Assembly: GCF_051656405.1 (NCBI RefSeq)
Contig: NZ_JBOGBV010000053.1
Location: forward strand, 13,479 to 77,478
DNA from: Paraclostridium sp.
GTDB lineage: Bacteria; Bacillota; Clostridia; Peptostreptococcales; Peptostreptococcaceae
Length of the DNA stretch: 64,000 bases
Reading direction: 5' to 3'
Under the pieces are notes generated by a model. It made no database searches. It worked only from the letters and a program-made list of their open reading frames with translations, and was not told where the DNA came from. The position numbers were made by a program, and so were the translations under genes. This document shows positions 30,349 to 32,613 of the stretch, in pieces; position 1 is the first letter of the stretch; the number at the start of each line of letters is the position of its first letter.

Positions 30349-30723
30349 TTAAAGTTCTACATATAAACTTTTAAATATTTCTATACCTTCTTCTAAAGTT
30401 ATACCAACTGATTTTGCTTGTTTTATAACTATTTCAAGTTTATTTTCTATCTCATATAAAGCAGTTTCTCTTAACCTATCTTTATTTTGCATAGATACAA
30501 ATGTTCCTTTACCTGCAATCGTCTCTATAAATCCTTCTTTTTCAAGTTCCTCATAAGCCCTTTTTATAGTTATAATGCTTACCTTTAGTTCTTTTGCAAA
30601 ATTTCTTATAGAAGGTAATCCCTCCCCTTGCTTTAGTGTAGAATCTAAAATTTGATTTTTAGTTTGATTTTTAATTTGTTCATAAAGTGGAATTGTAGAT
30701 GTATTGCTTATATTTATATTCAA
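30349..30723 (-). CDS. GntR-family regulator, YtrA subfamily
   Basis: PLYEQI, LPSIR, RAYEELE, GKGTFV; short C-terminal domain. Confidence 0.92.
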   Translation of the reverse strand: MNINISNTSTIPLYEQIKNQTKNQILDSTLKQGEGLPSIRNFAKELKVSIITIKRAYEELEKEGFIETIAGKGTFVSMQNKDRLRETALYEIENKLEIVIKQAKSVGITLEEGIEIFKSLYVEL

Positions 30724-30758: not shown

Positions 30759-30801
30759 GTGTATAAACTGTGTATATTATATATATACACTTTATATACA
30801 C
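30759..30801. promoter_or_regulatory. YtrA-type palindromic operator
   Basis: Nested GTGTA...TACAC inverted repeats (inner pair 30770-30790) upstream of the gntR gene. Confidence 0.7.
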
Positions 30802-30869
30802 CATTGTCAACTTTATCTTCTTCAAATTTAATAAAATAAAAAAAGAACCTTTATATAAAGGTTCTTTTT

Positions 30870-31229
30870 TTATTTTATTAAAAGTTTTTCTTTCCATTCA
30901 TCTTCTTTAAATCCTATAAGTACATTTTTTCCATCAAATGCTATAGGTCTTTTTATAAGCATTCCATCACTAGCTAAAATTTCTAGTAATTTATCATCAC
31001 TTTCGCTTTTAACTATATCTTTAAGCCCAAGTTCTCTATATTTAACTCCACTAGTGTTAAAGAATTTTTTTAATTCATATGTACCTGTTTTATACATAGT
31101 TTCTAATTCTTCTTTGCTAGGAGGATTTTTTACTATTTCTATTTCCTCAAAATCTATATTATTCTCATTAAGCCAAACCTTGGCTTTCCTAACTGTAGAT
31201 CATCTAGAATATCCATAAAATTTTAACAT
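30870..31229 (-). CDS. ArsC/Spx/YffB-family thioredoxin-fold protein, probable selenoprotein (Sec10), 119 aa
   Basis: ATG at 31229 with AAGGAAAGTG RBS; MLKFYGYSR-UGA-STVRKAKVWLNENNIDFEEIEIVKNPPSKEELET continues in frame into the 75-aa ORF (FFNTSG, MLIKRP, IGF); the UGA sits at the family's first Cys. Confidence 0.85.
31170..31186 (-). other. Bacterial SECIS-like hairpin
   Basis: AAGCCAA-GGU-UUGGCUU, starting 13 nt after the UGA at 31200-31202, with G first in the apical loop. Confidence 0.75.
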
Positions 31230-31308
31230 ATATATCACTTTCCTTTACTGTATTTTTTATATTATTACACAGTTTTCTACATGTTAAAACATTTTCTTAA
31301 AATAAAAT

Positions 31309-32613
31309 TTAATCATTCCACGGAACAACTTCAACTTCTCCATAGCATCTATCATTTAAACGGTTAGAATACTCACCTTTATAATTAATGATATATAGAA
31401 CTACTAATTCCACGTATCTAGTCCCTATTTGAAGTATATTCCACATATCTTCAACTGTTAAATTAGCTCTTTTAGTTTTTCGAGTCGGATGAACAACTTT
31501 ATTTCTAAAATATGTAAATATATCAACTCCATCATTGAACTTGTTATATATATACTCATTGAATAAATTTAATTCTTCTTTTCCATAATATATACTGCAC
31601 TCATCTAATAAGATTCTTATATTGTCAGAGGCTGTATTCTTTTCAAACTCTACATCAGTTAAAATTTTATTTTTTTCAACAATAACAACATAAGACAATG
31701 TTTCTAGTGCAATTTGTAAGGATACAACATTATTTTCTATACTTATATTATCTATAGATTCTATGTACCAGTCTACTACATGCTTTAACGCTGGACCATA
31801 GTAAGAATCATGTAATTTTCTGCACATTAAGTTCATATATTTTTCAATATTATGATGATTTGCTATAGTGTCAGACCATGTAGGAACATATTTAAATGGA
31901 GTTGTTAAAGACTCCTTCCATAGCCTAAATGTATTTTGATTGTCTTTATAGCCCATTACCATACATATACCTATGTATCTTCCAGCTAAAAAGCTAAGCG
32001 TATCTGATATCTCATCTAATAGTTTAAATATATATGTTGACTTAAATACTTTATTATCTTTTCTTTTTATTCTTCCTATATGTGTAATTATGCTACCATT
32101 TTTAAACCTTAACTCTTCATATAGTTCTTTTTTATAATCGTATCTTTTATCAATTATTATCTCATATCCACTTATTTCAAACTCAATTCTTCCAGCAAAC
32201 AATTTATCCATATACTTTATAAGGGTTCCTTGCTTTTTGTCAAAATTTACAATATGAAAATCTATGTAATCCACATATCTATTTTTTGATTTTATTATTC
32301 CGCTGCTAACGTATCCATCTACATAATTTTTTTGTATACTATTTATATTAACTTGGAAAGGTTGATATCCATGGACTTCTATAACCCCTTCCAGGTAATC
32401 ATCTTTAAGAATTTCTAAATCTATATTTTTATGACCTAGTACTTTAGCTTCAAAATTTATACATACGGGAGGACTAATTCTATAGTAGATCCGGCCCTTA
32501 CATTTATATAGCTTGTCTAGGTAAATGCAAAAATTTCCTTCATGAATAACTATATCTTCATCGACTCCATATTCTAAATAAGGAGAAGATATAGCTTCTT
32601 TTACTACCTTCAT
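31309..32613 (-). CDS. Uncharacterised protein with a C-terminal HEPN-like Rx4H motif (ApeA/YopA-like)
   Basis: beta-rich N-terminus; helical C-terminus with ALETLS and FRNKVVHP. Confidence 0.55.
   Translation of the reverse strand: MKVVKEAISSPYLEYGVDEDIVIHEGNFCIYLDKLYKCKGRIYYRISPPVCINFEAKVLGHKNIDLEILKDDYLEGVIEVHGYQPFQVNINSIQKNYVDGYVSSGIIKSKNRYVDYIDFHIVNFDKKQGTLIKYMDKLFAGRIEFEISGYEIIIDKRYDYKKELYEELRFKNGSIITHIGRIKRKDNKVFKSTYIFKLLDEISDTLSFLAGRYIGICMVMGYKDNQNTFRLWKESLTTPFKYVPTWSDTIANHHNIEKYMNLMCRKLHDSYYGPALKHVVDWYIESIDNISIENNVVSLQIALETLSYVVIVEKNKILTDVEFEKNTASDNIRILLDECSIYYGKEELNLFNEYIYNKFNDGVDIFTYFRNKVVHPTRKTKRANLTVEDMWNILQIGTRYVELVVLYIINYKGEYSNRLNDRCYGEVEVVPWND

Follow-up and report, generated by a model that had tools for sequence, protein, structure and literature searches.

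A gene on the minus strand of Paraclostridium sp. DNA (positions 30870–31229) very probably encodes a 119-residue selenocysteine protein. The window, that is, the whole stretch of DNA that was analyzed, is 64,000 nucleotides long, and all coordinates refer to it. On the identity, motif, and phylogenetic evidence given below, the gene is identified as the single-copy orthologue of the Clostridioides difficile regulator OseR (CD1777). We consider it probable that in this 119-residue orthologue selenocysteine (Sec) takes the place of the sensing Cys and serves as a selenol redox switch.

Reading frame, flanking signals, and neighborhood of the gene

The full gene, an OseR-type member of the YusI/Spx/ArsC family with the motif U10-S-T-V13, comprises 119 codons and a TAA when its TGA is translated as U. 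Its start codon is the ATG at 31229–31227 (minus strand), and the encoded protein begins M-L-K-F-Y-G-Y-S-R, followed by the TGA of codon 10 (31200–31202, minus strand), which is the sole interruption of the frame. After the TGA, 34 sense codons lead into the 75-aa open reading frame (30870–31097) of the mechanical ORF list. The predicted 119-residue protein contains no Cys. A Shine-Dalgarno-like stretch read from the sequence (31234–31246, minus strand), with AAAGGAAAGTG in all same-genus loci, lies 4 nt before the ATG. The sequence-only reading, which had preceded this analysis, gave the start codon with its ribosome-binding site, the UGA, the 34 codons, and the length of 119 residues correctly in every coordinate and count. 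Its statement that the ORF track holds just the 75-aa fragment and that gene calling misses the rest also applies to NCBI nr, IMG, and ENA, in which the same fragment is present on 229 contigs.

A consensus scan placed a putative promoter region at 31259–31291 (minus strand), where a sigma-A-like site (TTAACA-17-TAATAT), 30–58 nt upstream of the ATG, lies over a degenerate sigma-B-like box (TGTTT-N16-GTGTAAT). A terminator scan found an intrinsic-terminator-like hairpin with a T run (30832–30877, minus strand) that overlaps the stop codon; 2 terminator-like sites were found against 0.1 expected. Because the gene has a promoter-like site of its own and a terminator overlapping its stop codon, it is predicted to be monocistronic and to stand alone.

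The upstream neighbor is a 434-aa gene (31309–32613, minus strand) that has no Pfam or NCBIfam match, and the genomic context therefore gives no functional clue. The C-terminal codons of this gene (...G-E-V-E-V-V-P-W-N) precede the oseR-like gene in 16 of the 24 loci printed, from many genera, and it looks more like a conserved core neighbor than a mobile defense gene. The other neighbor is a GntR-ABC transporter operon with a TTG start at 30723. The proteins of neighboring genes fall into 90%-identity clusters together with Paraclostridium bifermentans proteins, which identifies the organism as a Paraclostridium. No ars gene is nearby, in agreement with the earlier remark that the gene is not in an ars operon. 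A 21-nt AT-rich inverted repeat (30770–30790; GTGTATATAT-A-ATATATACAC) is located in the interval that separates the selenoprotein gene's terminator from the TTG with which the GntR-ABC operon starts, and it is a likely operator for the GntR regulator.

Codon 10 alternates between TGA and cysteine codons

When 112 species genomes of the family were searched in all six frames and all copies were extracted, full-length orthologues were found in 71 of the genomes. Sixty-nine orthologues form a clade with the motif C/U-S/T-T/S-V/A, and their codon 10 is TGA in 40 and TGT or TGC in 29, so that the TGA/TGY alternation predicted for the Peptostreptococcaceae was indeed found. Trp never occurs at this codon in the 69 clade orthologues. 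All 9 matching genomes of the same genus have TGA at codon 10, as do orthologues from many other genera, and one genome (G113) carries 2 Sec-form copies on different contigs (L063 and L067). The replacement of the second Cys by Val and the lack of any remaining Cys, both pointed out earlier for the Paraclostridium protein, extend to all 40 Sec forms of the clade and to 28 of its 29 Cys forms. On the protein tree, Sec and Cys were switched about seven times (at least 5–7). Among the relatives, codons 1–9 vary synonymously and the ribosome-binding site is conserved.

A class-wide search returned approximately 24 matches flagged as containing one TGA, but this number is unusable as a tally of Sec forms: TGA was located at codon 10 in only 7 of the 18 matches fetched, and the rest were terminal stops within the match.

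A SECIS-like hairpin accompanies the TGA forms

The putative SECIS hairpin (AAGCCAA-GGT-TTGGCTT; 31170–31186, minus strand) has a 7-bp stem and a GGU loop and begins 13 nt past the UGA, exactly the distance given by the sequence-only reading. Its loop of 3 nt is small, which counts against recoding. By itself, the hairpin is not above chance: the z-score of the 66-nt fold is −0.46, and 59 of 200 shuffled sequences were equally stable. An Rfam search at E ≤ 10 over 31050–31300 gave no SECIS or other credible family. Since the single-sequence fold is uninformative, the significance of the hairpin has to be judged by comparison among relatives.

Among the clade orthologues of the family, at least 6 inner pairs together with a loop that starts with G were found in 39 of 40 Sec forms and in 0 of 29 Cys forms; a Fisher value for this association of hairpin and codon overstates the case because the relatives are not independent. 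Codon 16 of the Sec forms is GCC (36) or GCT (4), and codon 17 is AAG in all 40, whereas the Cys forms encode Ala16 by GCA or GCT and Lys17 mostly by AAA. Residue 18, the codon of which (31176–31178) lies within the loop, is encoded by a codon starting with G (Ala, Val, or Asp) in 35 of 40 Sec forms and is Lys or Asn in 28 of 29 Cys forms. The codon choice at positions 16–18 thus differs between the 2 forms and limits the G-first hairpin to the TGA forms, and the comparison indicates that the SECIS constrains the protein sequence at residue 18.

The evidence for the stem consists of biased codon choice and G-U wobble, and double compensatory changes are absent because the stem lies within coding sequence. 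The hairpin covariation expected earlier holds in that only orthologues with TGA retain the hairpin, but the term was too strong in view of the missing double changes. In a recent reversion (locus L024), codon 10 is TGT and a change of GCC to GCA breaks a stem pair, whereas the sister locus (L025) is a Sec form. In a distant Sec form (L039), the hairpin is of another kind, has a GGA loop, and is located further downstream of the UGA. Two other genes of the source genome have comparable elements: in grdB, the hairpin, 12 nt after the UGA, consists of a 7-bp stem and a GGU loop, and in selD, where the distance from the UGA is 14 nt, it consists of a 5-bp stem and an A-GGU-A loop. The GGU is located 20–21 nt from the UGA in both genes, matching the OseR-like gene.

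The source genome encodes the selenocysteine machinery

The source assembly (83 contigs, 2.74 Mb, 88.5% complete) contains selA, selB, selC, and selD, the 4 genes that the sequence-only reading had proposed to look for, and each scores over its curated cut-off. The genes selA and selB are adjacent, the tRNA-Sec gene (selC; 69.9 bits) is on the same contig, and selD carries an in-frame TGA of its own. An in-frame TGA also occurs in grdA (C-F-V-U) and, with the motif U-G-T-C, in grdB and in a prdB-like gene. As a stop codon of this genome TGA is rare, closing 50 of 1404 long frames, and the frame lengths are normal under table 11; thus, the genome does not use genetic code 4. The gene selB scored above its cut-off in all 5 genomes tested, Sec-form and Cys-form alike. 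Loss of the Sec trait was therefore rejected as the cause of the Cys forms, and the use of Sec or Cys at codon 10 is a gene-specific choice.

In Logan, ENA, and one NCBI record, the gene also occurs as near-identical 117–119-aa versions (P0002–P0017) with Trp at position 10. These versions were rejected as Cys forms; their Trp10 stems from code-4 gene calls on short contigs. Such entries hide the selenoprotein and may distort alignments. The gene is probably mis-called in the 40 species genomes of the family that have the TGA form.

Two readings of the UGA compete with recoding. If selenium played no part in the decoding and the codon was passed by near-cognate read-through or translated as Trp in the manner of code 4, the hairpin would arise incidentally from the conserved K-A-K-x-W-L codons, which are in fact partly self-complementary and allow 7 pairs in 3 of the 29 Cys forms; the public full-length versions with W at position 10 point the same way. 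These versions, however, are an artefact of table-4 calling, long frames are normal under table 11 with few of them ended by TGA, codon 10 is exchanged with Cys and not with Trp, the Sec machinery is complete, and the G-first loop with the GCC and AAG codons is specific to the TGA forms, all of which leaves decoding without selenium very improbable. We assign slightly less probability still to the reading that the TGA is a nonsense mutation or a sequencing error, or that the gene is a pseudogene in decay, by which the 75-aa ORF or nothing would be made. Gene callers and public databases do hold just the fragment, but 40 genomes from many genera share the TGA at this codon, nothing else interrupts the frame, codons 1–9 are under purifying selection, and the ribosome-binding site is conserved, and the comparative sequence data can be said to have refuted this explanation already. 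The Sec machinery, the TGA/TGY alternation, and the TGA-linked hairpin together uphold the earlier proposal of a hidden ArsC/Spx-family selenoprotein, and it is almost certain from these data that the gene is a real selenoprotein gene in which UGA codon 10 is recoded, with Sec insertion as the inferred outcome.

The protein belongs to the YusI/Spx branch of the ArsC fold

The protein matches the Pfam ArsC family (5.6e-19), and TIGR01617, which represents the Spx/MgsR/YusI subfamily of the ArsC fold, is the only NCBIfam model that it matches above cut-off (109.3 bits, cut-off 75.05). The scores were below cut-off for TIGR00014 (arsC; 50 bits, cut-off 106), the YffB model (46.6 bits, cut-off 121), the Spx models NF002459 (60.9 bits, cut-off 123) and NF009210 (51.8 bits, cut-off 159), and NF041106, named "ArsC family (seleno)protein" (24.9 bits, cut-off 85). 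No other ArsC-family gene is present in the source genome. The U-x-x-V motif, E52, and the model scores under cut-off place the protein outside canonical Spx, and the score for TIGR00014 and the lack of an ars operon context place it outside the glutaredoxin-coupled ArsC proteins of that model.

In the AF2 model (pLDDT 94.2), residue 10 is located between a strand (residues 2–6) and a helix (residues 11–22), which is the active-site position of the thioredoxin fold. The TM-scores of the model are 0.87–0.92 with YusI-type structures (0.92 with 3GKX), 0.85–0.88 with Spx, 0.81 with YffB, and 0.76 with E. coli ArsC. The nearest solved structures by sequence (E 2e-31 to 9e-25) are the YusI-type proteins 2M46 (S. 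aureus SACOL0876), 3FZ4 (S. mutans), and 3GKX (B. fragilis), which are also nearest by fold and carry no assigned function. 2M46 and 3FZ4 have a C-x-x-C motif with Cys, whereas the Paraclostridium protein has U-x-x-V.

Spx and MgsR of Bacillus subtilis and other Bacillota share with the Paraclostridium protein the fold, the TIGR01617 match, the redox residue at position 10, and the R-P-I motif. Comparison revealed the following differences: (i) the C-x-x-C disulfide switch of Spx and MgsR is absent from the Paraclostridium protein; (ii) Gly52 of Spx is replaced by E52; (iii) the hydrophobic cluster through which Spx contacts the alpha-CTD is unconserved, as reported for OseR; and (iv) the C-terminal helix of Spx is missing.

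The gene is an orthologue of the oxygen-responsive regulator OseR

CD1777 of C. difficile was named OseR in 2024 and described as a Spx-type protein of the YusI subfamily with a mapped sigma-B-dependent promoter (Caulat et al., mBio 2024, PMC11481553). Deletion of oseR derepresses fdpA, fdpF, revrbr1, and revrbr2 in anaerobiosis (PMC11481553). In OseR, the CXXC motif is replaced by CXXV, the Cys is exposed at the surface, and Gly52 of Spx is exchanged for D52; the protein lacks a DNA-binding domain, the residues by which Spx contacts RNA polymerase are not conserved, and no operator motif was found (PMC11481553). Its targets were later extended to the rbr-perR-sor operon, with H2O2 and air as signals (mBio 2025, PMC11980386), and oxidation of the single Cys was put forward as the sensing step (PMC11980386). 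The regulatory role was established by genetics only, in C. difficile (PMC11481553, PMC11980386).

Clostridioides has one homologue of the Paraclostridium protein, which is 74% identical and has C10-S-T-V13, D52, and no other Cys. Two published CD1777 primers match this Clostridioides copy (locus L031) with 1 and 2 mismatches. In the tree, the Paraclostridium and Clostridioides copies are in one C/U-x-x-V/A clade with an SH-aLRT support of 93. The Paraclostridium protein, with U10-S-T-V13, E52, and no Cys, fits the traits of the OseR group, namely a single redox residue, x-x-V, and a residue other than Gly at position 52. Thus, the identity, the primer matches, the shared clade, and the motif lead us to regard the gene as a Sec-containing OseR orthologue. 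The 2 proteins have in common their length, fold, single copy, one redox residue in x-x-V, an acidic residue 52, and the K-R-P-I motif; they differ in the sensing residue, which is Cys in OseR and predicted to be Sec (UGA and SECIS) in Paraclostridium, and in the upstream neighbor of the gene.

A GATT/GGTT-N15-16-GGGTAWA box, which corresponds to the sigma-B pattern of C. difficile, is present upstream of most orthologues from other genera, in Sec and Cys forms alike and in Clostridioides. In the genus Paraclostridium, the box reads TGTTT-N16-GTGTAAT, with a degenerate −10 element, and overlaps the predicted sigma-A-like site; regulation of the gene may therefore differ from that in C. difficile. 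The source genome contains an rsbV-rsbW-sigB operon and at least 6 genes of the rubrerythrin family, which are possible targets.

Relation to catalogued ArsC-family selenoproteins

Selenoproteins of the ArsC family have been catalogued several times: an "arsenate reductase" with UxxS, assigned to TIGR00014, from the Sargasso Sea in 2005 (PMC1088965); "ArsC-like" selenoproteins listed in 2006; an "arsenate reductase 2" with UxxC, assigned to the CDD model cd03032, from GOS in 2008 (PMC2398784); an "arsenate reductase-like" protein with UxxC, assigned to NF041106, in reviews of 2022 and 2026 (the latter PMC13188914); and a YusI-like "arsenate reductase" with U-T-T-C in the deep-Sep supplement (PMC12013277). 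These proteins are of the same Pfam family as the Paraclostridium protein, have Sec as the first residue of the N-terminal redox motif and an in-frame SECIS close downstream, and their genes are likewise routinely truncated by gene callers. The cd03032 model is presumably the Spx subgroup. The Paraclostridium protein differs from the UxxS and UxxC forms in having U-x-x-V, without a resolving Cys or Ser, and in scoring below the TIGR00014 and NF041106 cut-offs, and its clade includes an experimentally characterized regulatory member.

The searchable literature and catalogues, a search to which BSepDB and RefSeq records did not belong, contained no U-x-x-V form for the ArsC family, and UxxV was listed only for TsoY. 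Literature that joins selenocysteine with Spx, YusI, MgsR, or OseR reported no Sec form; one apparent match was rejected, since it concerns selenocysteine used as a toxic Cys analogue. A link between ArsC-family selenoproteins and a characterized regulator was likewise not found in the searchable papers or catalogues. Sec in proteins of the ArsC/Spx fold is therefore already known, and the U-x-x-V OseR-type form, which we found in no paper, is apparently unreported in the searchable literature.

UxxC Sec forms of TIGR01617 were found in other families of the Clostridia. For 5 of them, TIGR01617 is the only model above cut-off, and NF041106 is absent from the families listed at E ≤ 1e-8. The UxxC Sec forms (L110, L111, L119–L122, L125, L039, and L041) have an additional Cys four residues before the Sec (F-I/L/V-C-Y/F...U), at which the OseR clade has Gly; this Cys is a possible alternative resolving residue. 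The "arsenate reductase" selenoproteins of the Clostridia fall into the YusI/OseR subfamily. Because only one member of this subfamily has been studied and it is a regulator responsive to O2 and H2O2, their designation as arsenate reductases is probably incorrect.

A predicted selenol redox switch

In the proposed working of the protein, SelB and tRNA-Sec would insert selenocysteine at UGA codon 10 under the direction of the in-frame hairpin that follows after 13 nt. By analogy with OseR, the reduced selenolate would be the active, repressing form and would keep genes for the defense against oxygen and peroxide switched off. In C. difficile, the flavodiiron, reverse-rubrerythrin, and rbr-perR-sor genes are repressed anaerobically and released by O2 or H2O2 in the OseR model (PMC11481553, PMC11980386). 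In Paraclostridium, O2 or peroxide would oxidize Sec10 to a selenenic acid or, with an outside partner, to a selenenyl-sulfide or diselenide. Because the protein has no second Cys, resolution of the oxidized Sec would depend on an external thiol or a second subunit. The oxidized form would cease to repress, and the oxygen-defense genes would be derepressed. Compared with Cys, Sec has a lower pKa and a higher nucleophilicity, and its oxidized forms are more easily re-reduced; a switch with Sec should thus be more sensitive and more reversible than one with Cys, and it would act faster. We infer Sec insertion, the transfer of the OseR role to Paraclostridium, the role of residue 10, and the redox chemistry from the comparisons above.

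The alternative at the level of function accepts the selenoprotein but takes it for an enzyme, a mono-selenol ArsC-fold reductase that acts on arsenate or another oxidized substrate and is recycled by an external thiol; the OseR phenotype would then arise indirectly through the lost redox chemistry. A precedent for such a reductase exists in glutaredoxin-coupled ArsC, which has a single catalytic Cys and uses an external thiol. The ArsC Pfam domain, the predicted location of Sec at the active-site position of the thioredoxin fold, the label of putative arsenate reductase on all of the closest solved structures, and the cataloguing of the Sec relatives under the same name are consistent with an enzyme. 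So is the fact that no contact of OseR with DNA or RNA polymerase is known; since OseR has no DNA-binding domain, conserved polymerase contacts, or known operator motif, the phenotype of the C. difficile mutant could be indirect. To our knowledge, moreover, nearly all known selenoproteins are enzymes, which counts against a sensor. Against the enzyme stand the scores far under cut-off for TIGR00014 and the YffB model, the lack of an ars gene nearby, and a fold nearer to YusI-type proteins and Spx (TM-scores of 0.85–0.92) than to E. coli ArsC (0.76). Two of the 3 catalytic arginines of E. coli ArsC probably have no counterpart in the Paraclostridium protein, and the sole experimental data on any orthologue are regulatory. 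We therefore consider the enzyme unlikely. The orthology to the characterized regulator OseR favors a sensor over a redox enzyme, and the gene product is most likely a selenol-based redox sensor and not an arsenate reductase. The sequence-only reading had named a redox enzyme or sensor and left the substrate open; the redox role is retained, and the choice between the two now leans to the sensor through OseR.

Implications of a possible signaling role of selenocysteine

Close relatives that keep SelB use either Sec or Cys at one sensing residue, which makes them a natural experiment, and the benefit of Sec over Cys becomes testable in a sensor rather than in an enzyme. Oxygen-sensitive selenoproteins also include the main energy enzymes of these anaerobes, the glycine and proline reductases. 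We put forward tentatively, as a possibility that falls short of being probable, that the protein is the first Sec-dependent redox-sensing regulator, that is, a selenoprotein that serves signaling and not catalysis, with a lower threshold for O2 and H2O2 and a more reversible response than the Cys of OseR. If so, the repeated Sec/Cys exchanges among Sec-competent relatives would tune the threshold to the habitat. A repressor that is made only when the UGA is decoded would, moreover, cease to be synthesized at codon 10 under selenium shortage, so that the oxygen-defense genes would be derepressed and the supply of selenium would be coupled to the readiness for oxidative stress.
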